In this document: piece by piece, positions 796-58,866 of the stretch
Position numbering within the stretch: position 1 is the stretch's first letter
Layout of the letters: the number at the start of each line of letters is the position of its first letter
Assembly: GCA_049323895.1 (NCBI GenBank)
Contig: JBMOKT010000021.1
Location: forward strand, 193,219-257,218
Direction: 5' to 3'
Length of the DNA stretch: 64,000 nucleotides
DNA from: Bacillota bacterium
GTDB taxonomy: Bacteria; Bacillota; Peptococcia; Peptococcales; BICA1-8
Notes under the pieces: model-generated
The model's input: only the letters and a program-made list of their open reading frames with translations
Told to the model about the DNA's origin: nothing
Databases searched by the model: none
Program-made: the position numbers and the translations under genes

Positions 796-1020
796 TCCCT
801 GGATTAACAAATCCGGGGAGTTTATATTAAGAGCGCAAAAAAATAAAATGCTTAATACAAACAACCCGTAGTCAGGCAATTTACGGCTGCCTGGTAGAAA
901 CATTTGGACCATATCTCCAAATATATACAAGTCGCTTTTCCGAACATTATTTAGTTTTTCCATCATAATGTTCACTATTTGACAATATATTACCTTATTT
1001 TTAATAAAAATACAATATCA

Positions 1021-5487: not shown

Positions 5488-5506
5488 TAGTTCCTCCTTA
5501 AGATAG

Positions 5507-5552
5507 TTACTAGTGACTGGTTACTGGTTACTGGTTACTAGTTACTAGTAAG
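5507..5552. repeat. family-A heptamer array (GTTACTG/GTTACTA)
   Basis: The sequence reads GTTACTA GTGACTG GTTACTG GTTACTG GTTACTA GTTACTA GTAAGTG. The sense (minus) strand carries TAG or TAA in most units. Confidence 0.85.
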
Positions 5553-6333: not shown

Positions 6334-6362
6334 ATTATACCAATGGTAGTATATAATGTCAA
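6334..6362 (-). promoter_or_regulatory. consensus sigma-A promoter upstream of hpt
   Basis: The minus strand reads TTGACA (6362-6357), exactly 17 nt, then TATAAT (6339-6334), about 50 nt upstream of the hpt ATG. Confidence 0.7.
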
Positions 6363-6527
6363 CAATGGCGTCTGGTCGTCTAATCGTTTATTCGTCCAAT
6401 CGTCCGTTTATTAAGTAGTCTGTTATGCCTACTTGTCAAAAAAATAGAGATAGGCTAAAAAACCTATCCCTAAGTTTAAACTAAGAATAACTGGTAATGT
6501 TAAAGACGAAAAGACGAACCTTATGGC

Positions 6528-7355: not shown

Positions 7356-7487
7356 AAAAATCCCCCCTTTTTTCTACTAATTTTTACTAGACAAAAGGTG
7401 AAATTATACCTTGACTACCTGTCCTAATTAAAAAAAAGTCTGAACTTTTTTTAGTCCAGACTTTTTAAAGGTAAAGGCTAAGAAAAT

Positions 7488-7652
7488 AAAGTGGAAAAGT
7501 GCAAAAGTGAAATAGTGGAAGAGAAAAAAATAAAATTGACTATCGACTCTTGTTTTCCGATGTCACGGCGTCACGATGTCACGCCTTTTACTATCAAACT
7601 ATCACACTGGTTTTTACTAGCCACTAGCCACTAACAACTAGCCACTAATATA
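7488..7652. repeat. family-A drifting heptamer array
   Basis: The 7-bp register is held through AAAGTGG AAAAGTG CAAAAGT ... CGATGTC ACGGCGT CACGATG TCACGCC ... TTACTAG CCACTAG CCACTAA CAACTAG CCACTAA. Confidence 0.8.
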
Positions 7653-8947: not shown

Positions 8948-9020
8948 AAGTGAAAAAGTGCAGTGACAAGTGCCCTGTGACCAGTGGAAAAAAAGTGAAA
9001 GTGTGAAAGAGTGAAAGAGA
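8948..9020. repeat. family-A heptamer array (AGTG every 7 nt)
   Basis: AAGTGAA AAAGTGC AGTGACA AGTGCCC TGTGACC AGTGGAA AAAAAGT GAAAGTG TGAAAGA GTGAAAG. Confidence 0.8.
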
Positions 9021-9231
9021 ATTTGAAACCACGGATTCCTGCGGACCACACGGATAAACACCGATTATTCACTTAGTTAGGTTAGAGATTTCATGGAACA
9101 AACTGATTTCAACTATAATCTAGCGTCAGCGTAATCTTTAATGTCAATTAATAATCTAGCGAAGCGTAATCTTTTTATACCTTTACCTGTCATGCAGAAT
9201 TACTTGTTAGCTTACCTCTACCTTTGCCTGA

Positions 9232-13433: not shown

Positions 13434-13586
13434 AAAAACGGAATAAAAAAGCGTTTAAGTGGCCAGTTGTTAGTGGCTAGTGGCTAGTAAAAAAACACCT
13501 CTTCGCTCAGCAAAATAAAAGAATCAAATACTTAAGAAATCCATATGGGAGACCAGCTAAAATATACTTGGTGAAGTTTTGGTCAG

Positions 13587-13617
13587 AAAAAGCAAGGCGC
13601 AGACACGACGTCTGCGC
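13587..13617 (-). terminator. rho-independent terminator of the fix operon
   Basis: The minus strand has stem GCGCAGAC / GTCTGCGC followed by CTTGCTTTTT. Confidence 0.7.
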
Positions 13618-16659: not shown

Positions 16660-16865
16660 TTTTCTTCTGGGTGAATATTGTTAGTCTGATTTTTTTCTTG
16701 GGTGAAGAATATTAGTCTGATATTGCTTTTGGGTTAAGATTGTTAGTCTGAATTGCTTGAGGGTGAGGATTGCTAGTCTGACTAGCTTATGGGTGAACAT
16801 TGTTAGATTGTCAGACCCAAAACATTACTCCTTGGACGTGTCAGACGCAACATCTGACCCGTAAG
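16660..16865 (+). repeat. family-B ~30-bp mosaic repeat array inside the etfB-etfA spacer
   Basis: There are five units of (C)TTNTGGGTGAANATTGTTAGTCTGA plus a linker, followed by the module GTCAGACCCAAAACATTACTCCTTGGACGTGTCAGACGCAACATCTGACCC. Confidence 0.85.
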
Positions 16866-17681: not shown

Positions 17682-17797
17682 ATTCCTTCCCTCCCTATCT
17701 TAAATTTTTCTTCAAACTTCTTTATTTTATGTGATTTAAGTCATATTATTTTTTACCCCACATATATTTTTATAAAACAAAATTTTTTATTAAAGAA

Positions 17798-17982
17798 CTA
17801 TCCACACTATCCACAATTTTTTCCACAGGCTGAACAGCCAGCCTTGCCCCTCCCTATTATATTTTCCACATTTTCCACAGGAAGATGTGGTTTTTACGCT
17901 GCAAAAATTCCACACAAAAAAAAGCCTATAATTCTGGGTTATTCACAACTTTATCCACATTATCCACAGGGAAAAGTCCACA
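17798..17982 (+). promoter_or_regulatory. cluster of ten same-orientation DnaA-box-like 9-mers
   Basis: There are two perfect TTATCCACA boxes (17951-17959, 17960-17968). The others are CTATCCACA x2 (17798, 17807), TTTTCCACA x3 (17819, 17862, 17871), AATTCCACA (17906), TTATTCACA (17939) and AAGTCCACA (17974). A very AT-rich stretch at 17700-17797 precedes them. Confidence 0.6.
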
Positions 17983-19124: not shown

Positions 19125-19143
19125 GCAAAATGCTCAGTTTTTT
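19121..19143 (+). terminator. rho-independent terminator
   Basis: CTGAGCA aaa TGCTCAG followed by TTTTTT. Confidence 0.8.
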
Positions 19144-19344
19144 CTATACTTAGTTGGAAAGTATTACTTTTTTCAAGGAAATAAGTATAAGTGCAACATC
19201 TGCTTCCGCAGTCGCCAGAGGCTCGGCGCAAGCCGTGTTTTTCTAATACTTATTTGGATTAATTACTTTCTATGGAAATAAGTATAAGTGCAACATCTGC
19301 TTCCGCAGTCGCCAGAGGCTCGGCGCAAGCAGTGTTTTTCTAAA
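19144..19344 (+). repeat. family-C structured element, two tandem copies
   Basis: Copies at 19144-19246 and 19247-19344 each contain ATACTTA...AATAAGTATAAGTGCAACATCTGCTTCCGCAGTCGCCAGAGGCTCGGCGCAAGC(C/A)GTGTTTTTCTAA. Confidence 0.9.
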
Positions 19345-22942: not shown

Positions 22943-23084
22943 TTAAAAATCCTCCCTAATATTTCCTAACTATAGTCTGTAGTATATCCTAATACAAGAT
23001 TAGAAAAACAGCAAGAAAAAAAACGGCATCTTTGCCGTTTAGGTTCCGCTCCGCTAGCATAAGGCTAAGGTAAAGAAAGGGGAA

Positions 23085-23306
23085 AAGTGAAAAAGTAAAA
23101 TAGTGTAAGAGAAAAAGTACTTCAAAGATAGTCATAAAGTTTACTATCATACTTTCACACTTTCTAACTTACCAACAGCTTAGTCAGCTATTGGCTATTG
23201 ACTATCGACCATCGACAATCGGCCTATCTAGTCACTAGTCACTAGTCACCATTCACCAGTCACCAGTCACCAGTCACCAGTCACCAGTCACCAGTTACCA
23301 GTTACC
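23085..23306. repeat. family-A drifting heptamer array, about 30 consecutive 7-bp units
   Basis: The array ends in GTCACTA x2, GTCACCA, TTCACCA, GTCACCA x5, GTTACCA x2. The same 7-nt register continues upstream through GCTATTG GCTATTG ACTATCG ACCATCG ACAATCG. Confidence 0.9.
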
Positions 23307-23331
23307 TTGCCCAAGATGTTAACCCAGTAGT

Positions 23332-23724
23332 CTACGCATACACCTTAATATCCTTCCCTTTAATAAGGCTGTCCACGTATTGGATGAGAGCCTCTATGTC
23401 AAATGGCTTAAGAATATATCCCACAGCTCCGCCTTTTTTTATCTGTTCAATGGTCTCCACTTCTCCATATGCGGTCATCATTATAACCTTTATTTGGGGG
23501 CGGGAATGTTTGATTTTATATAAAGCAGTAATGCCATCCATTACAGGCATTTTAATATCCATAATCATCAGCTTGGGCAGCATCTCCAGAGCAAGTTTTG
23601 CCCCTTCCTCACCATTAGCTGCAGTTCCAACGCTATAGCCTATGTCTCCTAGTGCAGTTGCCAGCAATGACCTAACACCAAGCTGGTCATCAACAACCAG
23701 TATATCAAGTTTAGACTTGTCCAT
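23332..23724 (-). CDS. single-domain response regulator (CheY-like receiver)
   Basis: ORF trimmed to the ATG at 23724 (RBS GGGGGT). It reads LDILVVDD, has the phospho-acceptor context MIMDIKMPVMDG, and ends with KPF. Confidence 0.85.
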   Translation of the reverse strand: MDKSKLDILVVDDQLGVRSLLATALGDIGYSVGTAANGEEGAKLALEMLPKLMIMDIKMPVMDGITALYKIKHSRPQIKVIMMTAYGEVETIEQIKKGGAVGYILKPFDIEALIQYVDSLIKGKDIKVYA

Positions 23725-23808
23725 ATTTACCCCCAGCAACTCTTTATGCCAAATAATATTAAAAAGTTAATTCTATAAATACCCAAGATATCCTTTGGTG
23801 AAAAATGA

Positions 23809-25820: not shown

Positions 25821-25975
25821 GAGTGGCTAGTGGCTAGTTGGCAAATAGTCTATAGTCGATAGCTAATGGTTACTAGTATAATGTTTTAATTGACAGTATG
25901 ATAGTATGATGAGTAGTAGTTTACCAATTAGTCTTTTTTCTATAGCACTGTCACACTATCACACTGTCATCCAAG
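25821..25975. repeat. family-A drifting heptamer array
   Basis: GTGGCTA GTGGCTA GTTGGCA AATAGTC TATAGTC GATAGCT AATGGTT ACTAGTA ... ATAGCAC TGTCACA CTATCAC ACTGTCA. Confidence 0.8.
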
Positions 25976-28217: not shown

Positions 28218-28410
28218 TGCTTGGTGAAGATTAAGGGTCAGTAAAGCTTCTGGGTGAAGATTGCTAGTCTGCTATGCTTCTGGGTGAATATTATGAGTCT
28301 GATTTGCTTTTGGGTTAACATTGTTAGTCTGACATTTCTTACGGGCGAAGTTTGCTAGTCTGATTTTCCTTAGATATGCTTGTGTCAGACGCAAAAATAT
28401 TACTTCTAGG
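28218..28410 (+). repeat. family-B ~30-bp mosaic repeat array
   Basis: There are five to six units such as CTTCTGGGTGAAGATTGCTAGTCTG and CTTCTGGGTGAATATTATGAGTCTGA, ending in the module TGTGTCAGACGCAAAAATATTACTTCT. Confidence 0.85.
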
Positions 28411-29116: not shown

Positions 29117-29409
29117 TTTCTCAACTCCTTATTTCAGTAGCAAAACATTTGCTTACCATATAATAGTAATAATTTTTCATAATTATTACAATTAAAAATA
29201 AACCTTTATCATTGGTGTTATTCTGAAATAAATTTGAAACCACAGGACATTTTGGACCACACGGATAAAAATAGAACTTCATAGTTGGCTTTCGGGTTAT
29301 GAAGCTTAATATTTTCCCATAATAATGCTTTTCTGTAAATTCTGTAGCCACTGTAGCTACTAAAAAACAGCACTTTCATATAAAGTGCTGTTCTTTCTAT
29401 TCTATGTAA

Positions 29410-33261: not shown

Positions 33262-33435
33262 GGGTTAGTTATTGGGTCTGACATGCCAAGAAGTAAATGT
33301 ATTGCATCTGATGTACTTTGAGGTCATTCTTCTGCGTCTGACACAAGCATCAGACTAGCAATCTTACCCTCAAGCAATGTCAGACTAACAATCTCAGCCC
33401 ATAAGCAACTCAGACCAGCAATCTCCACCCAGCAG
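33262..33435 (-). repeat. family-B mosaic repeat, reverse orientation
   Basis: GGGTCTGACATGCC..., GCGTCTGACACAAGC, then TCAGACTAGCAATCTTACCC, TCAGACTAACAATCTCAGCCC, TCAGACCAGCAATCTCCACCC. Confidence 0.85.
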
Positions 33436-34804: not shown

Positions 34805-35178
34805 ATTGGGTAAGTGTATTGGGTCTGATATACTCCTTGGTCAGTCTTGTGCGTCTGACAACACCTGAGAAGTAGGATTTTGGGTCTGACATACCAGGCA
34901 GCCAATATTTTGCGTCTGCTGTACTATTTGGTCAGTCTATTGCGTCTGACACAAGCATTTTTAAGAATATCGACTAGCAATGTTTACCCAGTAGTTTGTC
35001 AGACTAACAATCTCAACCCATTAGAGCATCAGACTAACTATCTTCACTTAGAAGCAACATCAGACTAACAATCTTCGCCCGTGAGTATATCAGACCCGTA
35101 ATGTTTACCCTAAAGTACAACAGACTAACTATCTTCACCCACAAGCAACGTCAGACAAACTATCTCAACCCAGAAGTG
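34805..35178 (-). repeat. family-B mosaic repeat, largest array (~375 bp) in the cdaR-glmM spacer
   Basis: There are three GGGTCTGA...GCGTCTG(A/C) modules, then seven units of TCAGACTAAC(A/T)ATCT(C/T)(A/C)(A/C)CC(C), the reverse complement of GGGTGAAGATTGTTAGTCTGA. Confidence 0.9.
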
Positions 35179-45450: not shown

Positions 45451-45494
45451 CTCCGACGGAGTTAGTGGCTAGTTGTTAGTGGCTAGTGGATAGT

Positions 45495-45528
45495 AGGTCG
45501 GGTGTTCAAGTCACCTTGCCAGCTCCAT
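45495..45528 (+). repeat. 34-bp direct repeat, left copy (candidate att site)
   Basis: AGGTCGGGTGTTCAAGTCACCTTGCCAGCTCCAT is identical to 60439-60472. Confidence 0.9.
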
Positions 45529-45538
45529 TTAAGAGAAA

Positions 45539-45572
45539 ATCCTTAGAATCGCAGTAGTTCTAAGGATTTTTT
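45539..45572. terminator. bidirectional rho-independent terminator
   Basis: ATCCTTAGAA tcgcagtag TTCTAAGGAT, flanked by an A-run and a T-run. Confidence 0.8.
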
Positions 45573-45592
45573 ATACTTTACCCACCGGAAAT

Positions 45593-45877
45593 TCAGTCTT
45601 TCATTGATAATGCAAAATCTATTGAACTCAATGATGATTCAACATTTGACAGACTTGAATGTATGTCAGTCAGATCATATCCAGTTGAACCCTTGATGCT
45701 CTCAACTGACGAATGTATATCTGAGAGATCATATCCGGCTGAGCCTTTAATACCTTCAATTGCCTCAGTTATATCGGATAGGCTATTTGATCCACCTCCA
45801 GTCAATACGTCCATTTTAGAATTCAATTCAATTAACTGATCTCGAATTTCCATCATTACACTAATTAGTTCTTCCAC
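45593..45877 (-). CDS. small acidic protein (94 aa) with internal ~21-aa tandem repeats
   Basis: IEGIKGSAGYDLSDIHSSVES / IKGSTGYDLTDIHSSLSNVES. It lies 32 nt downstream of the giant helicase gene on the same strand. Confidence 0.6.
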   Translation of the reverse strand: MEELISVMMEIRDQLIELNSKMDVLTGGGSNSLSDITEAIEGIKGSAGYDLSDIHSSVESIKGSTGYDLTDIHSSLSNVESSLSSIDFALSMKD

Positions 45878-45909
45878 ACTTGCACGCTCCTTTCATCTAA
45901 TTTTGGGTT

Positions 45910-48900
45910 TTAAACTGCCACGACTTTTCCGTCAGTTTCTTTCACTCGTCCGCTTTTTAATAAATATTCATATGCCTTTTGCAGGTTAACCTGGATTCTA
46001 TCACCGGAACGTGCAAAGCCATATTCTCTTGCGGTGGATTGCAACAAGCTATCTTTAAGAATACCATAGCTATTTGAAACAATAACCAACATAGCTTCAG
46101 CAAGCTCGTCGGTGCTTATATAATTTATGGGTCTGGTATTGCCTGTGGCTTTTGGTATAACTTTTGTGTAGTCGGAAGGATAAAAGAAGTCACCATTACG
46201 TACGACACCTTTTAAAGATTTTAGAGCATAATCAACTTCTCCACGAACCTTTACAGTCGCTTTTTCGTTACCAAGGAGTGGAGCCAGATTTTTGCACAGT
46301 AATTCGTAATGAATAGGATATTCATTATTAACCACCGCCTTGATACAATCGCCCATGCTTAGGTAACCAGAAGCATTGCGTGGCAAAGAGCTGAAATTTG
46401 TGAACGCCTGTTTTTCAAATCCATAGGGATTAACTATATTATCCGAACTGGCACCACTTTCTTTTTCATTTATACTTAAAAATTCGCTTTCCGCCTGTGA
46501 CAACGGCATTTGAGAATCTGGCTCGCTTTCTTCGGCATAATTATTAATTGCACTTTCTACGGCATCAATGAGTTTATGCCCTTCAGTCACAGGGTCTTTG
46601 ATCCAGTCGGTAGACCAAATACGATGGATTTTCCAGCCCATATCTTCAAGTACCGCCTGACGCAGACGATCTCGTTCTCGTGCCGTTCTCGCAGAGTGAT
46701 AAGCAGCACCATCACATTCAATCCCTATAACATATTGTCCGCTGATGGTCGGATGCTTAACAGCCATATCTATGCGATAACCAGAACATCCAACCTGTGT
46801 CGCAAGCTTGTAGCCTTTTCGATCCAAAAAGTTGTAGACAGCAGCCTCAAAAGGGGAATCATGTTCGATAACATCGCTTTCTGTTATTTCTCTTAATAAC
46901 ACTGACGACCCATTCATGGCAAAGTCGATGTAAGAACGGAGCAGTTTCGGCCCTTCTCTCGTGATGCGTTCAACTTCAATATCAGTCGGCAGAATGGAAC
47001 CAACTAATTTTACATTATGCTTTGCTCTTGTAATAGCAACATTAAGGCGTCGCTCTCCGCCGTCTTTAGTAAGCGGACCAAAATTCATTGCAAACTTTCC
47101 TGTTGCATCTTTGGCGTAGCCTATGCTGAATATAATGGTATCGCGTTCATCCCCTTGGACATTCTCTAAATTTTTTACGAAGAATGCCTCATCATTGTCC
47201 TCATTGAAAAATGATTCATACTGCTGATTTTCTTTTCGCATCTGACGTATGACTGTATCTATAGCCTGTTGTTGAACTTCCCCGAAAGCTATAACACCAA
47301 GAGAACGATTAGGAAATCTTCTGAAATGATCAAATACAAGTTCTCCGATGCGTTTGGCTTCAATCATATTTCCTTTTTTACCACCACGGTCATAATAGCC
47401 GTCCGGCACATAAATGTATTCAACACCATTATGCGGCACTTTATCAACGTTAGCAGGGAAAGTGATTAGGTTATTTTTATAAATCTTGGTATTCGAGAAA
47501 GCGATAAGATGTTCATGTCTGCTACGATAATGCCAAAGCAGGGTACGCTCGGGAAGCAGGCCAGCTTCATCTAAAATTGATTCATAAGCATTTGTGTCGT
47601 CGTATTCATCATCATCAACATCTGTATCAAAATCGGCATCGGAGGCAGATGACATAAAGAAATTGGTTGGCGGCAATTGCTTACTATCTCCTGCAATTAC
47701 AACCTGTTTACCTCTTGAAATCGCTCCAATAGCATTTTCGGTGCATACTTGTGAAGCCTCATCAAAGATAATGATATCGAAATCATAACTTTCCGCTTCT
47801 AAAAACAGGCTCACGGATAAAGGGGACATCATTAAGCATGGCTTAAGAGTAAGGAGCAGATTGGGGATAGCCCTGAATAATTTGCGAATAGGCATAATTC
47901 TTCGCTGTTTTCCAAGCTCTCTTTTCAGAATGCTTAATTCATCAACACCTGAAGTGAATCGTTCAAAAGCTGGAAGAGAATCAATTAATTTTTTCTTGAT
48001 CCGTGCTTTTGCTATCTCAAATTGAAGCTTGTCAAGACGAGAAAATTCAGCAATTGTATTTTCCTGTACTCTTCGGCGAAAATTGAGAACGGCTGGATAC
48101 TGAGGTAGAATTGCGTCAAGCCATAAACGATAAAACCGTTTCTTAAACATCGGAATAATAAGAGCGGCATCAATATGAAGTTCTTCAATCTTGGTTATAT
48201 AATCAGCAAGTCCCTCATTCTGGCAATTAGTACGAGCATTTCTGAAATCAATCCATTCCTCAAGCAAAGAGAGCCCATTCATACACTTGGTAACTCTATC
48301 GTAGAGAGCAAGCATACCTAAACCCTTAATATCATCCTTGTTTTCAAATATATCAAGGAACCAAGAGAACTCTGTATTCATATCAGCTATGGCGTTGGTT
48401 AAATCGGCCAAGTATTTTGCAGACAAATTTATTTTGGATTCATTGGTGCATATGTTTCTGATAAAATCTGTGTTAACTCTATAATTTTCGCAAATCTTCC
48501 TAAAATCATTTGCCCAATTTAAGGAGCTAAGAACATTTGACCAATCGGTATCCATGCCCTTGTAAAGGAAGTCATAATGCCTCTGTAAATCAGCATCACA
48601 CTCTTCTAAAGTATTGGCCAAGGCGGCAAGAAGAGATAATTTGTCTTTACTTTGCAATATGAGATTAAAAGCTTTAATCAGCTTTGACAGCAGTGTTAAA
48701 TCCGTGTTTTCACCGGAATAGTGTTCGCCAAAGGTTTGTGCTAATATTTGATTGTTTTCTGAAAGCCATATAGAGACCTCATCCAGCTCTCGGAGAGAGG
48801 TCAATGTTTCAATAATTTCAGCATCACGGACTTTATTGACAATCTGTTTATATAAACCTTTAATAGTTTTTTTATCAGTCCTGTATTGACCTTTGAAGAT

Positions 48901-50934
48901 TTTGAAAAACGATGTGTAATCCGTTTTGAACCTTGAAAGCATTGCACGGAAATCTAAATCTAAAATTTCTCGGTCAAAGGTTGATAGTAACTTATTTCGT
49001 AGCCCAAGAATGTTTTCTATATTCTGTTTCGCTGTATCAAAGAGTGCCTGTGCTTTTTGAAAATCTCCACTGTTCCAAACTGAATAGCAGTAAGTGTTTA
49101 AAATCGCAGCATCCAACTTCTCAATCTCAGAATTAATCCGAGATAATGATAATAATTCATTTGGCTCAGAAAGTGGAATGCTCGAATCATAAGCGGAGAG
49201 TTCATTATAAATATTCGACAATTCATTTTGAACATTTTTATAACTGATTTTAAGCACGGAAAATTTATCCACTTCATTCCATAATGGCGCAATATCTTCG
49301 CCAACAAGCCAATTGAAAGGTACTTTGGGCGAAAGTTTGGCTATATCTAAAATACTGACAATTTCAGAAAGCCCTGTAAAAGATGGCTTATAATCTAATT
49401 CCAAGTCAGTAAAAATGCGATTATAAATAGCAGCGGCAGCTTTAATTTTAGGTAGCAATTTTGATGAATACGCACCTATATCGTGGCTGAGTTCATTAGT
49501 AACTGCCGGTACATGAGCGTTATTCCATGGGTTGGTTTTATAATCATCACTCATTTTTCCAATAGTGGTGGTAAATTGAGTAAGTAAATTAATGTAACGA
49601 TTAAATTTTTGAGGCGTTTTATCTGCGGCATTTTCAAGGCTGAAAATGATATTTTCATAGCTTTCAAGATTAGCTAATTCGCCATTTACCTGATAAATTG
49701 TCTTCCCAAGTGGTTCGACGACGGTAAAGATTTGTCGTGCATATTCATTAAGCTTTTGTTTATCTTCTTGCAGCAAGTCAAGTTTTTGATAAGCCTCGTC
49801 ATTCAGATTTGCCCTTTGCCGAGAAAGATTTAAAACGGAAGCAAGTTGTTCCAAAACATCCTTCTTGTTTGCTTTGTAGCTGTGAAGAGTTAAGCAAAAT
49901 TCATTTAGACCTACAGAAGTAAGACGTTTACGAACCACCTCAAGGGCAGCCATCTTTTCTGAAACAAATAAAACTTTCTTGCCGGAAGCCAAGCATTCCG
50001 CGATAATATTTGTTATGGTTTGACTTTTTCCTGTACCAGGAGGCCCCTGCAGTACGAAACTAACCCCTTTTTTAGCAAGAAGAACAGCATCCTGTTGGCT
50101 TGAATCAGCATCAACAACTTGAAATATGTCAGAAGGTAGTGTCTGCGTATCATGGTCAAAATCGTTTACATCTTCGTATGTAGAGCCGATGGCCGTAGTG
50201 TCACCAGTTAGAGCCCGTACGATAGGATGCCCCTTAATCTTGTCCTTATGGATTTCCAAATCCCGATACATATTTATTTTTAAGAACGAAAGCAAGGAAA
50301 GTCCTGTCTCATGAACGACTTCCCATCTATTAGTTTTTATTAACAAATTAACTTTTGAAAAATAATCTGACAGGTTTTCTTCCGCATCAAATTCAGGAAG
50401 ATCAATACCAAAGTCATTTGACATCTTAAAGGCAAGCGTAGGATTGAGAGTAATTTCATCCTCATGAAGGCTTAGTTCATACGGCGATGTAATTGATTCC
50501 AATGTCAGCGTAACGGGAACGAGGATAATAGGCGATAAAAAATATTGTTCAGAGTTAATATCTTCGCTCCATTTAAGAAAACCAAATGACAGATAAAGGA
50601 TATTAACACCCTGCTCTTCCATTGCAGTTTTAGCCTTTTCTCGAAGATTGCGGAGTGTTTTTTGCTGATCTTTTATTGCCTGATTTGTCATAATATTTCT
50701 TTCTAAGCTGTTCTCTTGCTCATCGCTTAGAAGGGAAATTTGGTCTTCGTCATAATAGGGGAATTCAATAGGATTTTCATTTACAACAAAGCTATCCCAT
50801 AGTTTAAAAATAGATGGCTTTTGTATTCTCAAATTAGAACGTTTTGAATCACGGTAATTAAGCAAACGATTTCTTTTGCCTAGGTCAAGCAGTTTGTTTT
50901 TCCATGCTTCGAGTTTCTGATCGATATTCGGCAT
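45910..50934 (-). CDS. DUF4011 / SF1 (Upf1-DNA2-like) helicase / Vsr-DUF559-like endonuclease / DUF3320 giant protein (HheA-like)
   Basis: Start set to the ATG at 50934 (RBS GGAGGA 8 nt upstream); the tracked ORF begins at a TTG at 50952. The N-terminus LLDLGKRNRLLNYR is the DUF4011 signature. Helicase motifs are LQGPPGTGKSQT (I), IIFDEASQ (II), VIAGDSKQLPP, HYRSRHE, NVQGDERD and RRLNVAITRAK. The nuclease core is GYRIDMAV...IGIECDGAAYHSARTARERDRLRQAVLEDMGWKIHRIWSTDW. Confidence 0.8.
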   Translation of the reverse strand: MPNIDQKLEAWKNKLLDLGKRNRLLNYRDSKRSNLRIQKPSIFKLWDSFVVNENPIEFPYYDEDQISLLSDEQENSLERNIMTNQAIKDQQKTLRNLREKAKTAMEEQGVNILYLSFGFLKWSEDINSEQYFLSPIILVPVTLTLESITSPYELSLHEDEITLNPTLAFKMSNDFGIDLPEFDAEENLSDYFSKVNLLIKTNRWEVVHETGLSLLSFLKINMYRDLEIHKDKIKGHPIVRALTGDTTAIGSTYEDVNDFDHDTQTLPSDIFQVVDADSSQQDAVLLAKKGVSFVLQGPPGTGKSQTITNIIAECLASGKKVLFVSEKMAALEVVRKRLTSVGLNEFCLTLHSYKANKKDVLEQLASVLNLSRQRANLNDEAYQKLDLLQEDKQKLNEYARQIFTVVEPLGKTIYQVNGELANLESYENIIFSLENAADKTPQKFNRYINLLTQFTTTIGKMSDDYKTNPWNNAHVPAVTNELSHDIGAYSSKLLPKIKAAAAIYNRIFTDLELDYKPSFTGLSEIVSILDIAKLSPKVPFNWLVGEDIAPLWNEVDKFSVLKISYKNVQNELSNIYNELSAYDSSIPLSEPNELLSLSRINSEIEKLDAAILNTYCYSVWNSGDFQKAQALFDTAKQNIENILGLRNKLLSTFDREILDLDFRAMLSRFKTDYTSFFKIFKGQYRTDKKTIKGLYKQIVNKVRDAEIIETLTSLRELDEVSIWLSENNQILAQTFGEHYSGENTDLTLLSKLIKAFNLILQSKDKLSLLAALANTLEECDADLQRHYDFLYKGMDTDWSNVLSSLNWANDFRKICENYRVNTDFIRNICTNESKINLSAKYLADLTNAIADMNTEFSWFLDIFENKDDIKGLGMLALYDRVTKCMNGLSLLEEWIDFRNARTNCQNEGLADYITKIEELHIDAALIIPMFKKRFYRLWLDAILPQYPAVLNFRRRVQENTIAEFSRLDKLQFEIAKARIKKKLIDSLPAFERFTSGVDELSILKRELGKQRRIMPIRKLFRAIPNLLLTLKPCLMMSPLSVSLFLEAESYDFDIIIFDEASQVCTENAIGAISRGKQVVIAGDSKQLPPTNFFMSSASDADFDTDVDDDEYDDTNAYESILDEAGLLPERTLLWHYRSRHEHLIAFSNTKIYKNNLITFPANVDKVPHNGVEYIYVPDGYYDRGGKKGNMIEAKRIGELVFDHFRRFPNRSLGVIAFGEVQQQAIDTVIRQMRKENQQYESFFNEDNDEAFFVKNLENVQGDERDTIIFSIGYAKDATGKFAMNFGPLTKDGGERRLNVAITRAKHNVKLVGSILPTDIEVERITREGPKLLRSYIDFAMNGSSVLLREITESDVIEHDSPFEAAVYNFLDRKGYKLATQVGCSGYRIDMAVKHPTISGQYVIGIECDGAAYHSARTARERDRLRQAVLEDMGWKIHRIWSTDWIKDPVTEGHKLIDAVESAINNYAEESEPDSQMPLSQAESEFLSINEKESGASSDNIVNPYGFEKQAFTNFSSLPRNASGYLSMGDCIKAVVNNEYPIHYELLCKNLAPLLGNEKATVKVRGEVDYALKSLKGVVRNGDFFYPSDYTKVIPKATGNTRPINYISTDELAEAMLVIVSNSYGILKDSLLQSTAREYGFARSGDRIQVNLQKAYEYLLKSGRVKETDGKVVAV

Positions 50935-50935
50935 A

Positions 50936-51145
50936 TTAGGTATCCTCCTCAACTAATTCGACGATATCCCCGATGTCAACATTTAGAGCGGTACAAACTT
51001 TTACAAGCGCATCCATACTCACATATTCGTCTTTTCCTAATTTAGCAAGTGTTGATGTGCTGATATTTGCTTTTTCAAGTAAATCGATTTTTTTCATACC
51101 TTTATCGATAAGCAGTTTCCATAGTTTTTTATAAGATATTTTCAT
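50936..51145 (-). CDS. XRE-family HTH protein (69 aa) preceding the helicase-nuclease gene
   Basis: LWKLLIDKGMKKIDLLEKANISTSTLAKLGKDEYVSMDALVKVCTALNV. Its stop lies 1 nt from the helicase ATG. Confidence 0.85.
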   Translation of the reverse strand: MKISYKKLWKLLIDKGMKKIDLLEKANISTSTLAKLGKDEYVSMDALVKVCTALNVDIGDIVELVEEDT

Positions 51146-51330
51146 TTCGGCACCTCTCAGGCTACAGTATTAAAATGCATTATATTACATTATATTACTT
51201 TTTCGATAAAACACAATATAAAATCTACCAATCTGTAAATTACATCATCAAAACTACAATTTATTTGCAGACTTGTGAAAGTAGGTAGAGTATTGTCTGT
51301 TGCTGAAGGGAGGTAGTTAAAATAAAGAAA

Positions 51331-51930
51331 ATGACTGCCGGAATAGCTGTTATCGCCTGTGTCGCATTATGTGCCACTGTGTGGCCACGAAGCGCCGAGG
51401 TCGGGGATTTACCCACCGAGCCGGTAAAAACTGCCGTAACCACCGAAATTGAGGCTCGGTCAGAGGGAATTCCGCAAATTCTTTTCTCTACAGAGTCTCC
51501 TGCGCCTAATACTGAGGGTGCCGTAGAGAGTGAGCAGGAGAACCTTGTGGTAACATCAGAAGAAAAAACAGAAACAGCACCGCCGATAGCCCTGACATCT
51601 CACGCTGTATCAAAATCCGTACCAGCCTCCACCGAACCAAAACCAGGTGATAGAACAGTCAGCGACGGCAAGCCTTATTTCTGGATACCAGGCTTCGGAT
51701 GGATTGAATACAGCGGTAAGCAAAGTGTCGAAGTCATCGCCAAGGATATGTTCGAGAACGGTCATAAAATCGGCTCTATGGGAGGCAGCGAAGTACCACC
51801 GAGAGAATCAACCCCTCCAGCATTAAAGCAACTGAAATCAACCGATGGAGAAATTTATATAATGTTCGTTGAAGTGCCTGAGAAGAACAGTACCCCGCCG
51901 CCATATAAACCCGAAGCAGTGTCCCCGTAA
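51331..51930 (+). CDS. hypothetical membrane-anchored Pro/Glu/Thr-rich protein, likely conjugative-element cargo
   Basis: N-terminal TM helix and the conserved-looking core GKPYFWIPGFGWIEYSGK...DMFENGHKIGSMG. GC is clearly higher than in the surroundings. The link to ICE proteins found next to serine recombinases comes from memory only. Confidence 0.5.
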   Translation: MTAGIAVIACVALCATVWPRSAEVGDLPTEPVKTAVTTEIEARSEGIPQILFSTESPAPNTEGAVESEQENLVVTSEEKTETAPPIALTSHAVSKSVPASTEPKPGDRTVSDGKPYFWIPGFGWIEYSGKQSVEVIAKDMFENGHKIGSMGGSEVPPRESTPPALKQLKSTDGEIYIMFVEVPEKNSTPPPYKPEAVSP

Positions 51931-51947
51931 ACCTACTTTTCAATATA

Positions 51948-51977
51948 AGATCTGCAATACACAGCAGGTCTTTTTTA
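51948..51977 (+). terminator. rho-independent terminator
   Basis: AGATCTGC aatacaca GCAGGTCT followed by TTTTTT. Confidence 0.7.
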
Positions 51978-52125
51978 TTGACTGATTATAAGAACAAAAA
52001 AATTCCGTGCAGATATCTCTCCCAACGTGAAAGTAAGTAGGAGGTAAAAATTTTGGTCCAACGGGTCCTCTCAAAGTGTAAATAATTAGAGGAAAAATTT
52101 ACTCCGTGCAGCCCCCTGATTTTTT

Positions 52126-54022
52126 CCCTAAAGTAAGCTCTCGGAAAGTAAGTAGTAAAAGCCGGTAGAAATTAGCAACCAGACTAAAAAAATTATGTTT
52201 TTGAAAAGAAAGTTATGTAAAAAGGGAAAATGTGCAAGACAAATAGACCTAGCATTTGATTTTTTTAAAAAAACTAGGCTAAAAAGATGTTTGTATTAAA
52301 AGGGATATATTAAGCAGCTATCTGTTTCACTTCACTTTCCCATTGCAGAATTAAACCTTTAATATCTAGTTTAAGATGCTTAACCATTGCATCCATATGT
52401 AAGCACATGGCGTCAACAAAAACTCTAAAGTTCCAAGCTCTGGAACTACGGATTTTACCTCTTTTTTCTAAGCGGTAATCTTCCTTAAGTCTCTTATTAA
52501 AGCGTTCAGAAGCAGTGCGACGTTTATAACGTTCTTTCCAGAGAGCACTATCACGAGGGATGCGAGTAAAAAAGCGAAGATTATCTTCTTCCCTAGTGTA
52601 AATAACACGACCATAGGAAGAATTTGAACAAGAGGCAGAGCAATTAATATTCCATTTTTTTCGCGATTTAGGACAGCGCCATTTATGCCTTTGCCGGTCC
52701 TTACAATAACCATGATAAGCCATAATATGATCGGCTTTATTGCAAAAAGGGATACCATCTTTAGTGAAGGAGAAGTCATTATTAAGAGCAGAGACACCGG
52801 TATTACGATTGTTTAAATCAATGATAGCTGTGACATTATTGGTATGCAATAACTGGTAAATAGGGTAAGCATCATGAGCGGAATCTAAGATGCATTCACT
52901 AAAATTAAACTCAGGATAAAGCTGTAAAGCATCAAAAAAAGAATAAACAAAAGCAATACTATCATGGCGATTGGCCTTATGGAGATAAAGATAAACAGGT
53001 AAATCGTAAGGGCTATTGGTAGCGGTAAATGCATAAAGGCTACGACCATAATAGTATTCCTCCCGATAGCTATCCCAGCCCCAAGTGGCATCAGGGTCAC
53101 TATACTTACGGGAGCACTTACAATTAAAAACTTTGTTTTTTCTACAATCACAAATTAATTTTCCGTAACGGCTTGCACCCGTGCGGACTGAGGTACCGTC
53201 CCCGGCAATAGAAAGGTTATTTATATCCCCCAAAAGCCCCTTTTGAGCAGAGGGAATGACAAAGCACTCCTTAAAGATCTGCTGTAACAGGTCATGAGGA
53301 CGGGAATGGAAACTAGGTGGATGCTTTAGAAGTCGGTTAACCAAACGTTTAACAGCGCCGGGTTTTTTAAGAGGCGACTTATCCCCTTTTTTCTTGCCTT
53401 TTTTAGGTTTGCGCCGGGGTTTACGGACCTTACTTGAGATATAAGCAGAAGTAGCTAACCAAAGACGTTTTAAGAAATCATAAAAAGTACCTACCCCGGG
53501 GACATCATTAGGATGAAAGCCACTTAAGATGGCCCAGATGGGAAAAGCCTTCAGGTTATTGACCCAATCATCGATAGTTCTTTCTTGGGTTAACTCCATT
53601 AGGAGTAGGGACCGAAAAATATCTACGGGATCACGGGAAGGGGCTCCTTTATTAGGAGAATAACTGTCATTTAAATTTGTAGCTACTTTACTTAAATCAG
53701 TAACCCATACTCTGGCAAATTCCCGTTGATGAAGTAAAACAGTTTGAGTTGTTCCTGATAGGAAGTAATGAATTTTTAATTGTTCAACTACAAATTGTTG
53801 AAACTCTTGATGAGAACGAGAAGATTTTAGCATAAAAATCACCATCCAAAACCTTGTTAGTAGGCAAAAATGCCTCCATCGCAATTATGGTGGTGATTTG
53901 GATTTGTCAAGTCCCAATTTGTTATCTATGAGATTTGGAGGAAAAAACAAAAATGGCCAAGGTGAAGACCTTGAACCATATAGCTTTCGGAATTTCCGAG
54001 AGACTTACTAAAGAATTAGGAG
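52126..54022 (-). mobile_element. IS element (IS1182/IS5-superfamily-like), 1897 bp, with an 8-bp target site duplication
   Basis: Imperfect terminal inverted repeats: CCCTAAAGTAAGCTCTCGGAAA (52126-52147) versus the reverse complement of TTTCCGAGAGACTTACTAAAGAATTAGGAG (53993-54022). GATTTTTT flanks both ends (52118-52125 and 54023-54030). One transposase ORF lies inside. Confidence 0.7.
52310..53833 (-). CDS. DDE transposase with DUF772-like N-terminal domain (IS1182/IS5 type)
   Basis: ORF trimmed to the ATG at 53833. The N-terminal block GAPSRDPVDIFRSLLLMEL...VPGVGTFYDFLKRLW fits the DUF772 pattern. Candidate DDE residues lie in IAGDGT, LDSAHDAYPIY and SERFNKRLKE. Confidence 0.75.
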   Translation of the reverse strand: MLKSSRSHQEFQQFVVEQLKIHYFLSGTTQTVLLHQREFARVWVTDLSKVATNLNDSYSPNKGAPSRDPVDIFRSLLLMELTQERTIDDWVNNLKAFPIWAILSGFHPNDVPGVGTFYDFLKRLWLATSAYISSKVRKPRRKPKKGKKKGDKSPLKKPGAVKRLVNRLLKHPPSFHSRPHDLLQQIFKECFVIPSAQKGLLGDINNLSIAGDGTSVRTGASRYGKLICDCRKNKVFNCKCSRKYSDPDATWGWDSYREEYYYGRSLYAFTATNSPYDLPVYLYLHKANRHDSIAFVYSFFDALQLYPEFNFSECILDSAHDAYPIYQLLHTNNVTAIIDLNNRNTGVSALNNDFSFTKDGIPFCNKADHIMAYHGYCKDRQRHKWRCPKSRKKWNINCSASCSNSSYGRVIYTREEDNLRFFTRIPRDSALWKERYKRRTASERFNKRLKEDYRLEKRGKIRSSRAWNFRVFVDAMCLHMDAMVKHLKLDIKGLILQWESEVKQIAA

Positions 54023-54119
54023 GATTTTTTTCACTCAACCCCTCAAAATTTTCCCTAAAGATATAGAGGGCAAAATTTTTTTCCGTCCAAACCCCTGTTT
54101 TTTTCCTTATAGATATAGT

Positions 54120-54976
54120 ATTCCGTCACCAGAGGAGGATTGGATTGTAGTCGAAAATGCACATGAGTCAATCATCTCACAGGAGCTTTGGGACACAGTG
54201 CAGCAGCTGATGAAGAGCCGCAAACGTGAGAACAGCAGCGGAGAGGTACAGATGTTTGCGGGATTGGTCAAGTGTTCAAAATGCGGCTCTTCACTTAATG
54301 TCAGCTTCGATAAGAAGAAAGGCAAATACACCGGTTTCTCCTGCTGGGTATACAAGAACTATGGCAAGGAACGGTGCACATCTCACGCAATTGGCTGGAA
54401 AACCACCATGAATCAACTTGTGCTGGAGGACATCCGCTGTAATGCAAAGGCGGCGAAGCTGGCGACGTCTAAATACAAGGATATGATTATTGCCGCAAAG
54501 ACTGAAAAGAAAAAGCAGGAAACCGAAAAATGCAAGCGTGAACTGAAAACCATAGAAAAAAGAATCACCGAGCTGGACAAGATTATGAACAAGCTCTACG
54601 AGGACTTGGCACTCGAACAGAAAAGCTCGCCGAGGAGCGCTATCAAGTCATGTCCAAACGCTACGAGGAAGAGCAGGCAGGGCTTAAAGAGCGGAGAAAT
54701 CAGATCACTGAACTGATTTCCCGTGCCGAGTTGGTATACGAAAATATTGATAAATTCCTGCCGATTATACAAAAGTACACCGATATAACTGAGCTGAATA
54801 CACAAATCCTTAACGAGCTGATACAGAAGATTGTGGTCTACGAAAAGACAGATAACCCTGATGGCAGCAAAAGCCAGCGAGTGGACATACATTATAATTT
54901 TATCGGGTATGTGGAAATGAAAGAGATGTTCGGGCTGCCGATGGTCATGGCAATGGCGAAGGAACTCGTCGGATGA
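54120..54976 (+). pseudogene. large serine recombinase, C-terminal two-thirds only, 5'-truncated and frameshifted
   Basis: It begins abruptly with IPSPEEDWIVVENAHESIISQELWDTVQ (recombinase domain), then the zinc beta-ribbon VKCSKCGSSL...CTSH and a coiled coil. The frame changes near 54615 (frame of 54198..54716 to frame of 54650..54976). No resolvase catalytic N-domain is present. Confidence 0.8.
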
Positions 54977-55001
54977 ATGCAATGCCCGGATGCAATACGG
55001 A

Positions 55002-55030
55002 TTGCGAATAAAGGAAATATTTGTTATAAT
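55002..55030 (+). promoter_or_regulatory. candidate extended -10 promoter for the 55.2-60.4 kb cassette
   Basis: TTGCGA (55002-55007), 17 nt, TG-n-TATAAT (55022-55030). A 34-nt near-palindrome (55058-55091) and a hairpin with T-run (55104-55135) lie between it and the first gene. Confidence 0.35.
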
Positions 55031-55182
55031 ATATCTAAATAGCAGAATATTCGGATGATTATAAGCCCCTCGAATTCGATGGGTTTATAATCTTGGACTA
55101 CTTAAATTACTTCCCTGCGAGGTAATTTATTTTATATGGTTGAAATTTCTTGAGGTATTTAAGGTGAAAGGGGTTATAAATA

Positions 55183-56271
55183 ATGAAATATGAGATTGAT
55201 TTCATTGGGATAAATGAAGACTGCAAAGATGCCTCTACCGTCTGCTTTCGTTTCTATTCAAAGAAAAATCAGCGATACATTGTTGGCGTATATGACGGAG
55301 GATTTAAAGCACACGGAGAAGCTCTTGTAAAACTTTTGGATAAATATTACTTCCAAAATGATTCTGAACCGAGCATCGACTTTGTTATATGCTCGCATAG
55401 TGACGATGATCATGCATCTGGGCTTACAGAGATTTTCTACAATTTCTCTGTAAATCATTTAATAATGAATAGGCCTTGGGAATACGCCGATGATCTATAT
55501 GAGTATATAAGTGATGGAAGAAAACTGTTAATAGCCTAAAACAAGAATTGAAGGAAAAGTATAGCTCTATAGCTGCATTGGAAGAAAAGGCTATTGAACA
55601 AGGAACAACTATTCATGAGGGTTTTCAGGGGTCTGAATATTTTTGATGCACTTACAATTCTATCGCCATCAAAAGAAATGTTCCTTGACCTGATAATTGA
55701 ATCCTCTAAAACGCCGCTAACGCCAGTAAGTGAAAGTTCTTCGCTGTTCAGAAAATTTATTGAAGCAGCTGTGACAATGATTGCGGATATTTGGGGGAAG
55801 GACTCTATACGCGAAGGAGAGTCAACGACTGCCGAGAATGAAACTTCTATCGTAATACATGGTAATATGGATGATAGTGGAGAATTCCTCTTGACAGGTG
55901 ATGCAGGAGTTCGTGCATTAAGTGCCTCAGCTGACTATGCGGAGAGTCAAGGAATCGATTTGCACTCTGTCAATTTTCACCAGATTCCTCACCATGGAGG
56001 AAGGCATAATGTATCCCCAAGTGTTCTTAACAGGATAATTGGAGATATCGTAGAAGAAGGCAGTAAGGCAGTCAAAACCGCATTTGTTTCAATCGGGAAA
56101 AACTCTGACCATCCTAAAAAAATGGTTGTTAATGCCTATATCCGTAGAGGAGTAAAGGTGTTCGAAGCGCGGGCTTCATCAAAATGGCATCACCATGGTA
56201 CCCCTGGCAGAGAAGACTATAGTCCGGCAACTTCCCTATCATTTAGTAACCAAGTTGAGAGTTGGGATTGA
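55183..56271 (+). pseudogene. MBL-fold (ComEC/Rec2-like) metallo-hydrolase, interrupted by two opposite frameshifts
   Basis: Metal motif ICSHSDDDHASGL in the first ORF and LLTGDAG...FHQIPHHGGRHN in the second. Both tracked ORFs are in the same frame, but the ~110 nt between them (about 55520-55630) is only open in another frame (KTVNSLKQELKEKYSSIAALEEKAIEQGTTIHEGFQG). Confidence 0.7.
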
Positions 56272-56282
56272 TAGGTAGCACT

Positions 56283-56954: not shown

Positions 56955-56998
56955 TTAAATTCCCTACAAATTAGGGGGTACTTCAGAGAGAGGGAAAT

Positions 56999-58863: not shown

Positions 58864-58866
58864 AGA

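Follow-up and report, generated by a model that had tools for sequence, protein, structure and literature searches.

What kind of sequence fills the gaps between genes with drifting 7-bp tandem repeats in an uncultured bacterium, and do the stop codons carried by these repeats serve any function? The question is raised by a repeat island near 23 kb in a 64,000-nt stretch of DNA (hereafter the window; C21:193219-257218) from the genome of an uncultured Peptococcaceae-like bacterium, which groups with Peptococcaceae-like metagenome-assembled genomes (MAGs). An earlier reading of the letters alone (the original prediction) had described about 30 consecutive in-register heptamers at 23085-23306, and had suggested frame-independent translation stops or insulators, a protein-binding lattice or slippage-generated filler as their possible roles. 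We consider it likely that the segment 23044-23306, on the minus strand, is one copy of a lineage-specific, non-coding mosaic repeat, which is dispersed in the genome and has been shaped by slippage, and that its stop codons are a by-product.

The genome (labelled G000) comprises 3.95 Mb in 41 contigs, with a GC content of ∼39%. The gene map consists of longest open reading frame (ORF) calls, which cover 87% of the genome, and the distances to start codons are therefore approximate. Repeats were detected by Tandem Repeats Finder (TRF) in the window and in the whole genome, and the chance level was obtained from dinucleotide-preserving shuffles of the intergenic DNA. We refer to the G-rich strand of a repeat unit as the G-form and to its complement as the C-form. 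The closest genomes are those of Peptococcaceae bacterium BICA1-8, Clostridiaceae bacterium BRH_c20a and similar MAGs, with a protein identity of ∼76%. The relatives compared belong to other genera, a genome of the same genus being absent among them.

All the genes around the 23-kb island are on the minus strand. The upstream gene in the ORF list has a response-regulator receiver domain (23332-23739, minus strand; Pfam PF00072, E 1e-28); its TAG stop codon is at 23332-23334, and the element begins 25 nt further downstream. The first module, block A (23230-23306, minus strand), has 11 units (TRF period 7, unit AGTCACC, 11.0 copies, 94% matches) and ranks among the five longest arrays of this period in the genome. 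Its plus strand reads AGTCACT x2, AGTCACC, ATTCACC, AGTCACC x5 and AGTTACC x2. The sense strand, (GTAACTG)2 (GTGACTG)5 GTGAATG GTGACTG (GTGACTA)2, is the G-form, and its TGA, TAA and TAG triplets cover all three frames. Block B (23187-23221, minus strand; TRF rows 23187-23205 and 23200-23221, GCTATTG / GACAATC) has five units, GCTATTG x2, ACTATCG, ACCATCG and ACAATCG on the plus strand and GATTGTC GATGGTC GATAGTC AATAGCC AATAGC in the sense direction. The two blocks are separated by an 8-nt spacer, GCCTATCT, at 23222-23229, with the register shifted by one base. Therefore, the supposed run of about 30 in-register heptamers is actually made of 16 units in two blocks, the register being broken by the spacer. 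The stepwise drift of the units was found to be real, as adjacent units of block A differ by 0-1 base, and the minus-strand stops in three frames were borne out for both heptamer blocks.

The heptamers do not extend over the whole of 23085-23306. An octamer arm at 23143-23164 (minus strand; sense AGAAAGTG TGAAAGTA TGATAGTA; TRF period 8) is complementary to a C-form octamer arm at 23083-23116 (minus strand; sense CTTTTTCTCTTACACTATTTTACTTTTTCACTTTT; TRF period 8/16). In the RNA minimum-energy fold these arms, whose minus-strand words are AGAAAGTGTGAAAGTATGATAGTA ... CTTACACTATTTTACTTTTTCACTTTTC, pair into a hairpin. They are followed by a degenerate tail (23044-23082, minus strand; CCCCTTTCTTTACCTTAGCCTTATGCTAGCGG...), in which decayed C-form heptamers (CTTAGCC) can be read. 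Downstream of the element, the terminator scan found a hairpin AAACGGCAAAGATGCCGTTT with a T-run at 23013-23040 (minus strand), which, judging from its sequence and place, is the native terminator of the response-regulator gene. The element is thus placed between the stop codon of this gene and the gene's own terminator. Beyond the terminator, the leader/promoter of tsaE (22943-23012, minus strand; TTCTTGCTGTTTTTC...GGATATACTACAG...GGGAGGA; the gene has a TsaE Pfam match) is conserved across genera in the orthologous gaps L005-L010 and bounds the space that is open to the element.

Genome-wide, TRF reported 417 period-7 rows, 311 of them in the 13% of the DNA outside long ORFs and 106 within the ORFs (87%). 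The intergenic DNA holds 303 period-7 rows vs 26.8 in the dinucleotide shuffles (∼11-fold), 180 period-8 rows vs 31.8 and 60 period-14 rows vs 5.4. The median copy number of the period-7 arrays is 3.6 and the largest is 12.4, and their main units are GGCTAGT, GTGACTA and GTGACTG. The median gap is 267 nt long if it holds a period-7 array and 105 nt long if it does not. These heptamer arrays are real and non-random, and are members of the intergenic heptameric simple sequence repeat (SSR) class, which in the broad sense is like the short tandemly repeated repetitive (STRR) sequences. We rejected an assembly artefact, because the arrays sit inside contigs between conserved genes in independent MAGs of different studies.

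The island was then found to have an architecture that goes beyond heptamers. When the 317-nt island (23015-23331, minus strand) was used as the nhmmer query, at least 10 other islands aligned collinearly with it over 100-270 nt, spanning several word modules; C8:298510-298305 (E 3e-16), C40:10340-10558, C39:191448-191666, C13:511161-511373 and the 7.6-kb island of the window are examples. The first part of the module order is GTGACTR heptamers, TAAAAC, a CTAG box, and GTGACTG or GGTCGAT/AGTCAAT heptamers, and the second part is GTKTGATA octamers, a variable middle, C-form octamers (CACTTTT, ACTATCAC) and a decayed tail. The GGTCGAT/AGTCAAT module, as in block B, comes after the heptamers in other islands as well. 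The 23-kb copy lacks the CTAG box and has the remaining modules. From these alignments, the 23-kb stretch is seen to be one copy of a mosaic element of ∼290 nt, in which the word modules follow one another in a conserved order.

The sister island at 7488-7652 (minus strand; TRF, sequence and nhmmer), located after the stop of an aminotransferase gene (7656), is collinear with the query positions 76-271. It contains the exact CTAG box at 7620-7647 (C21:200838-200865; TRF row 7616-7647), GTGTGATA octamers, CGTGACAT octamers and C-form CACTTTT octamers. Then follows a terminator at 7433-7466 (terminator scan), so that the arrangement is stop, words, terminator, as in the 23-kb island. The counterpart of the C-form arm 23083-23116 is here TTTCTCTTCCACTATTTCACTTTTGCACTTTTCC, and a CTTAGCCTTTACC tail is common to the two islands.

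The CTAG box, TAGTGGCTAGTTGTTAGTGGCTAGTGGC, is 28 nt long, and its variant unit TAGTTGT is always the second one. It has 65 non-overlapping matches in the genome with ≤4 mismatches, 7 of them exact and 26 with one mismatch, while the reversed box, used as a control in the same genome, gave 0 matches. The matches indicate that what had been described as CTAG-rich "arrays" are copies of this dispersed box. It occurs exactly in three genomes of two other genera of the family (G004; G005 and G008 from one genus), and is absent from three family genomes; the exact box was not found in viral contigs. Across the family, G000, G001, G004, G005 and G008 are rich in boxes, and G002, G003, G006 and G007 are poor in them. 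Moreover, box-bearing segments of ∼100 nt are 94-100% identical at six loci or more. As the same 28 nt are present at many loci and in several genera, the box has either been copied between loci or been held constant by a recogniser.

These observations bear directly on the simplest alternative, that each array is pure slippage filler, grown on the spot from a chance duplication of a heptamer without any copying or function. Slippage at each site cannot yield a box that recurs at ∼65 loci, and in other genera, with TAGTTGT in the second place; nor does it account for the collinearity of the islands over several modules or for the near-identical ∼100-nt segments, and the strict polarity at gene boundaries described below is not expected from it. 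At the level of single arrays, this explanation does fit. Neighbouring units differ by single-base steps, and identical variants stand next to each other 26 times vs 17.8 ± 2.5 after permutation, with none of the 200 permutations reaching 26 (8 usable arrays). Single-linkage clustering of units that differ by one change puts 120 of the 134 arrays into a single cluster. Units differ at orthologous sites, and polymerase slippage has been proposed for heptameric SSRs, which are over-represented in many bacteria (PMC4692102). Hence the slippage part of the original prediction stands for the runs of variant units and the differing words in orthologous gaps, and falls short before the conserved box and the module order. 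The local evolution of the units does look like slippage, as far as their sequences tell, but slippage filler as the whole explanation is improbable.

The turnover is best followed in the gap between the response-regulator gene and tsaE in six relatives (L005-L010). The terminator and the tsaE promoter/leader are conserved there nearly base for base, while the stretch from the response-regulator stop to the terminator is unrelated among the six. It consists of 13 GCCCAGG-type heptamers in L007, contains three GTGCCCA in L005 and other words in L006, L008 and L009, and has none in L010, a more distant family member. Similarly, in the Tex-NIF3 gaps of L006-L009 the ribosome-binding site is closely preceded by C-form heptamers or octamers, whose unit differs from genome to genome. 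The sequence (TAGTGGC)3, with ≤2 mismatches, was found in 6 of the 8 other family genomes, in 0 of 32 genomes of the order's other families, and in 6 of 400 sampled genomes of the phylum, with few copies each. Among the loci retrieved, scattered cases of other heptamer units came from Bacillota MAGs that are more distant. Many contigs of G005 and G008 terminate inside arrays, from which it follows that these repeats break assemblies. This matters to the annotators of subsurface genomes, as does the fact that the elements can supply or overlap stop codons.

Next, we considered the stop codons. In the 23-kb array and in most heptamer arrays of the window, none of the three sense frames is free of stops, and G-form arrays begin at a median of 11-25 nt past stop codons. 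An array could in this way halt read-through or frameshifted ribosomes of the upstream gene, acting as a frame-independent translation stop or insulator. In co-directional gaps, at least one sense-frame stop is found in 128 of 136 arrays, vs ∼59 expected from unit shuffles; 79 of the 136 have sense stops in all three frames vs 58 shuffled, and 8 have none vs 77 shuffled. However, the antisense strand has stops in every frame at least as often (95/136), and the stop richness is thus not specific to the sense strand. Among the distinct units, 25/38 carry a stop in the sense and 22/38 in the antisense direction, where 50% is expected, which is no clear excess; and because the 120 arrays of the single unit cluster have related units, they are not independent events.

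The genes themselves also do not behave as this role would demand. The leaky TGA is the stop codon of only 7.8% of the genes that precede an array vs 16.9% of the others, and the median distance to the following in-frame stop is 7 codons where an array is present vs 10 where it is not, the intergenic DNA being AT-rich. About half of the arrays are located before start codons in the opposite orientation, and the octamer and nonamer modules of the same elements are often without sense-strand stops. For comparable repeats in other bacteria, the stops were regarded as a constraint on the placement of repeats, and not as their function (MacGregor 2015; PMC4679880). We conclude that a role of the arrays in stopping translation is very unlikely. 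The stop triplets are a by-product of the founder unit sequences (CTAG, TGAC), which contain them on both strands, and they may help to explain why the arrays are confined to non-coding DNA. The observed/expected ratio of CTAG is 0.43 in ORFs and 1.01 in intergenic DNA; it is because of these repeats that CTAG is not depleted between genes.

Relative to transcription, the arrays occur in either orientation, but the choice is not random. The strand that runs 5'→3' from the closest gene boundary into the gap is predominantly the G-form, by 91:23 at starts and 76:35 at stops, and within 30 nt of the boundary this holds for 88% of the arrays at starts (n = 51) and 84% at stops (n = 57). As a consequence of this rule, the G-form is sense past a stop codon and antisense ahead of a start codon; orientation is hence non-random, yet reversed at gene starts relative to gene ends. 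Co-directional, convergent and divergent gaps all obey the rule. The box follows it closely. For the 31 copies near a stop codon, some of which overlap it, the median distance of the 5' end is 12 nt; for the 30 copies near a start it is 42 nt, with a group of them at 16-25 nt, immediately past the Shine-Dalgarno sequence. The 3' side of the box is 177-262 nt away from the next gene. At 20 loci of G005, from another genus, the boundary distances were 36.5 vs 172 nt, with the 5' side closer in 10/14. The order relative to terminators is also uneven genome-wide: G-form arrays stand before the terminator by 15:5 and C-form arrays after it by 14:5.

The two forms differ in RNA folding. The fold energy per 10 nt is -2.9 kcal/mol for the G-form, which self-pairs through G-U, vs -0.95 for the C-form, and the whole 23-kb island has a minimum free energy of -108.5 kcal/mol (z = -5.2). 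The box RNA folds only via G-U pairs around its two CTAG cores. One reading of the polarity is that selection acts on RNA structure, which would be tolerated in the trailers and avoided before ribosome-binding sites. Replication-strand bias was rejected as a source, since the G-form is on the G-skewed strand in 82 of 216 arrays, approximately as the mixture of starts and stops predicts. Chi sites are 5-8 nt long and G-rich, but a Chi-like recombination signal was likewise rejected, as coding DNA has hardly any of the heptamers and their arrangement in each gap is symmetric.

Based on these results, we propose the following scheme. The element would be built of 7-, 8- and sometimes 9-nt tandem words in a conserved order, with the CTAG box as an optional part and a loop between the G-form and the C-form octamers, and at 23 kb its position suggests that it is probably transcribed as the 3' trailer of the response-regulator gene. 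Copying between loci would account for the dispersal, as the box and the ∼100-nt segments recur, the former in several genera. Point mutations followed by slippage-type duplication would create runs of identical variants and so the drifting look of the arrays, and these local processes would also leave different words in orthologous gaps of related genera. The elements would occupy dispensable DNA in the gaps up to the stop codon or the ribosome-binding site, and terminators and promoters would be spared. By position and folding, a gene would then have the structured G-form in the trailer RNA after it and the unstructured, C-rich form in the leader RNA before it. The net effect on the host is most likely small or none, as for selfish or neutral DNA, with a side effect on the structure of mRNA ends being possible.

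Several observations weigh against parts of this scheme. At starts, the polarity correlates only slightly with the RNA-fold asymmetry (r = 0.19, p = 0.04), and at stops there is no correlation. An origin of the element as a palindrome, with two arms, could also give the polarity, and in gaps that hold both forms the order is G...C in 10 and C...G in 1. By symmetry, selection on RNA structure and a palindromic origin predict identical geometry. The exact conservation of the box between genera with only ∼76% protein identity argues for a sequence-specific constraint, and a purely neutral reading does not account for it. As for the copying mechanism, a link to REP-associated tyrosine transposases (RAYT) and their repetitive extragenic palindromic (REP) sequences was tried and rejected: the 8 matches to PF01797, the Y1 (HUH) transposase family, are flanked by GGGGACGGTTC-type repeats and not by heptamers or the CTAG box. 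RNA-structure selection was rejected as the full cause of the polarity, because the GTGACTA family folds both ways and is yet equally polar. A simple two-armed foldback could not be established for the heptamers; within a gap, the enrichment of complementary copies is weak (15 vs 8.4 per kb) and about that of same-strand copies (16.5 vs 10), although the octamer arms of the 23-kb island do pair.

The Y1 genes form an observation of their own. Four of them, encoding 265-280 aa, are at C8:315998-316789, C32:81747-82556, C24:24796-25617 and C8:91440-92276 (G000), where they are flanked by inverted GGGGACGGTTC / GAACCGTCCCC; they resemble a separate REP/RAYT-like system, which is unrelated to the heptamers.

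Could the elements nevertheless have a function? A lineage-specific factor that binds DNA or RNA might use them as cis-elements and thereby act on the stability of mRNA ends, on translation initiation or on the organisation of the chromosome. The exact 28-nt box across genera is in favor of this, as are its fixed placement, a few bases from stops and just beyond ribosome-binding sites, and the replication of the polarity in the genus of G005; three heptamers also make 21 bp, arithmetically two helical turns. Among related systems, there are a reporter effect of heptamers in Nostoc (10.1101/2022.06.06.494920) and the binding of heptamers by CspB (cited in PMC4679880). On the other hand, the sequence and the copy number of the units turn over freely at orthologous sites, the site is empty in L010, three family genomes are without the box, an Rfam family is absent and a candidate factor was not identified. 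With Rfam 15, no island of the window matched at the gathering score, the sole match in the window being a purine riboswitch at 849-950. A functional cis-element of this type is, in our estimate, unlikely. A wider form of the idea is that box and lattices are cis-sites of an undescribed system, either a non-autonomous mobile element that homes with its G-form end to gene boundaries, be they stop codons or ribosome-binding sites, or a lineage-specific factor that reads the 7-nt lattice on DNA or RNA and governs the fate of mRNA ends throughout the genome; the exact conservation of the box, its placement near stops and ribosome-binding sites and the replicated polarity would fit such a system, and we regard it as a possibility, if a somewhat doubtful one.

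A further alternative, that the arrays are phase-variable contingency loci whose length tunes or switches the neighbouring genes, appears extremely unlikely. Arrays of this type are prone to slippage and some of them adjoin ribosome-binding sites. Contigs C10:1-170 and C41:1-170 open with the same ∼124 nt (gene start, Shine-Dalgarno sequence and CTAG box), after which the island content diverges; the divergence stems either from different strains at a single locus, in which case it could reflect heterogeneity of the population, or from a fork of the assembly within the repeat. Nonetheless, 0 of the 65 boxes are inside ORFs, no array was seen in a promoter spacer (the arrays exceed the 16-18 nt of a spacer, and no systematic search was made), the flanked genes, such as tsaE, guaA and Tex, are housekeeping genes, and most of the arrays are short, as their median copy number shows. 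We retain the dispersed, slippage-shaped mosaic repeat as the preferred explanation of the 23-kb island.

Boxes are mostly solitary; inverted pairs 350-650 nt apart occur in few gaps, and one gap of 738 nt has 30-nt inverted boxes with one mismatch. We also noted a ∼100-nt sub-family in convergent gaps, at C22:40077, C26:108053, C28:36114, C40:26006, C29:12831 and C31:163966 (G000). Its layout is a small A-run/hairpin/T-run, the CTAG box and TAGTAAAACACATTAAAAAGCTGTACTGGGCTAGTTATCCACAAC, and its tail has a DnaA-box-like TTATCCACA. An insertion sequence beside the box was considered and rejected, since the multi-copy flank is only this ∼100-nt non-coding module in convergent gaps.

The related arrays that had been listed for the window were recovered by TRF, but only part of them are heptameric. 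Period 7 was observed at 5504-5549, 7616-7647, 13458-13488, 25822-25838 and 45461-45494; the rows at 16-38, 6376-6404, 7488-7608, 8990-9019 and 25891-25969 have period 8, and those at 53-82 and 29342-29361 have period 9. The heptamer array at 5504-5549 (minus strand, sense C-form, …GTAACCAGTAACCAGTCACTAGTAACTA; 6.6 copies) stops a few bases short of AAGGAGG, the Shine-Dalgarno sequence of guaA (GMP synthase Pfam match). At 13458-13488 (minus strand; TRF) there is a CTAG box, with the C-form in the sense direction, between an upstream terminator (13597-13617) and a downstream gene that starts at 13433. The island at 25822-25969 is on the plus strand, opposite to transcription (TRF; nhmmer plus-strand match C21:219025-219191). 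The 5' end of its G-form adjoins the start of the NIF3-like gene, its GACAGTATGATAGT / ACTATCACACTGTC octamer arms form a hairpin, and relatives have different heptamers or octamers in its place. A plus-strand CTAG box with one mismatch at 45461-45494 (TRF; box match C21:238681) is 10 nt past the stop of nrdJ (ribonucleotide reductase Pfam match), directly to the left of a 32-nt direct repeat.

The remaining islands of the window consist of longer words, all on the minus strand. Octamer words (sense AAAAGTGA AAGAGTGA) and nonamer words (sense TAGCTACAG...) at 16-82 (TRF period 8 and 9) come after the stop of the gene ending at 88. At 6376-6518 (TRF), two copies of TCGTCTTT (6502-6518) and the TTAGACGA-type words (6376-6404; (T)TAGACGA x4) form an inverted pair around a terminator at 6445-6472, upstream of a promoter sequence that matches TTGACA-17-TATAAT perfectly and has a TG extension (6334-6362). 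Octamer words at 8990-9019 (TRF period 8; sense C-form, CACTCTTTCACTTT) are located upstream of the aminotransferase gene.

The original prediction had placed the arrays in the native DNA of the window, and this received modest support: 28 rows of period 7-9 fall in 7.1 kb of intergenic DNA at 1-46 kb vs 1 row in 2.0 kb at 46-64 kb. The last array ends at 45494, next to the exact 32-nt direct repeat (45496-45527 and 60440-60471) that brackets a ∼15-kb accessory segment (45496-60471). This segment has genes for a DDE transposase, a recombinase fragment, a metallo-β-lactamase (MBL)-fold fragment and an AAA+ ATPase, and a DNA methylase gene (60836-62485) is found just outside its right end. Contigs of low GC are also poorer in boxes (1 observed vs ∼3.5 expected). 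A switch of GC skew and gene strand near 52 kb was rejected as a replication origin, because it coincides with the accessory segment, which is on the other strand.

Some other repeats and features were recorded on the way. A second repeat family with units of ∼30 bp (…GGGTGAAGATTGTTAGTCTGA…) is present in gaps between co-oriented genes, at 16664-16806, 28246-28366, 33342-33425 and 34999-35074, and single units related to it are in the response-regulator-tsaE gaps of L005, L007 and L009. A dispersed intergenic module, AACCACGG…CACACGGATAAACACSGAT, occurs at 9030-9070 and in the Tex-NIF3 gaps of L006-L009, which are different from it in location and orthologous to each other. An intergenic tandem duplication at 19135-19343 has a 97-nt unit in 2.1 copies with 88% matches. 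The purine riboswitch (RF00167, 85.6 bits; 849-950, minus strand) is inside the mechanical ORF 88-975, so that the real gene starts downstream of it (below 849). A cluster of DnaA-box-like 9-mers at 17797-17968 contains TTATCCACA, ACTATCCAC and ATTTTCCAC, and TATCCACA doublets are at a comparable place in the distant relatives L011, L022, L030, L037 and L045.

Finally, we compared the element with known repeats. The original prediction could not name a described family for the arrays, but the class of heptamer repeats is already known in other lineages, as cyanobacterial STRR, TAACTGA of Beggiatoa and GGGAATC of Xanthomonas. Such intergenic repeats were already known from cyanobacteria in 1990; Xanthomonas and the giant sulfur bacteria were added later. 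STRR sequences of heterocystous cyanobacteria were reportedly described by Mazel et al. in 1990, and the units of STRR1-3 in these organisms are CCCCAGT, TTGGTCA and CAACAGT. The arrays studied here do not belong to STRR in the strict sense, their units being GGCTAGT, GTGACTA and GTGACTG and their host Peptococcaceae-like. The GCCCAGT/GCCCAGG units of L005/L007 differ from STRR1 by one base, which we take as a coincidence. STRR heptamers can form hairpins between the genes of operons and have no known function (PMC2670836). Like them, the present arrays repeat a 7-bp unit in tandem, from a few times up to roughly twelve, at hundreds of intergenic sites, and the units are lineage-specific. Unlike them, they are from a Bacillota host with different units, and their heptamers are one module of an ordered mosaic with a box and a polarity, features that we did not find described for STRR.

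The TAACTGA repeats of marine Beggiatoaceae, and of some Cyanobacteria and Bacteroidetes, are similar in being intergenic, mixed with related heptamers and oriented to the neighbouring gene; one of their orientations has stops in all three frames, and between strains they show indels in 7-nt steps (MacGregor 2015; PMC4679880). TAACTGA was not among the units found in our genome. The TAACTGA sets are not predicted to fold, whereas the G-form here folds strongly, and the sets of BOGUAY (the Guaymas Beggiatoa) are mostly before starts (PMC4679880), while here the arrays are evenly divided between gene ends and gene starts, on opposite strands. About half of the boxes end 16-25 nt from a start codon, beyond the Shine-Dalgarno sequence, and the other half follow stops on the other strand. 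CspB, as cited in the same paper (PMC4679880), binds heptamer repeats.

The heptameric SSRs GGGAATC / GGGGAYT of Xanthomonas and Nostoc (Rehm et al. 2015; PMC4692102) share the intergenic excess, the closeness to an ORF (theirs ∼28 nt) and the variation in length and sequence of a site between relatives. Their units are G-runs that are able to form G-quadruplexes, whereas those in our genome have at most GG; they are evenly distributed between the strands relative to the aligned ORFs, and no mosaic architecture was described for them (PMC4692102). In Nostoc, where the repeats are near start codons, deletion of the heptamer repeats altered the regulation of a reporter (preprint 10.1101/2022.06.06.494920).

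In architecture, the nearest analogues are the REP sequences and the bacterial interspersed mosaic elements (BIME) of Proteobacteria and BOX of Streptococcus pneumoniae. These are mosaic, non-coding and extragenic, are transcribed, form hairpins, have variable modules and exist in hundreds of copies, after gene ends or between the genes of operons; their units are imperfect palindromes of 20-45 nt. Our elements have a similar mosaic extragenic architecture but are made of tandem 7-9-nt words, and are without sequence similarity to these families, an Rfam match or a link to RAYT. In the literature on heptamer repeats that we compared, an occurrence in Firmicutes, a grammar of several words, a conserved box or a polarity rule was not described. 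The present family thus shows more internal structure than the described heptamer cases, namely a grammar of 7-, 8- and 9-nt words, a box shared across genera and a polarity that flips between gene ends and starts, and these properties lead to testable predictions on the selection of RNA structure or on a factor that recognises the elements.

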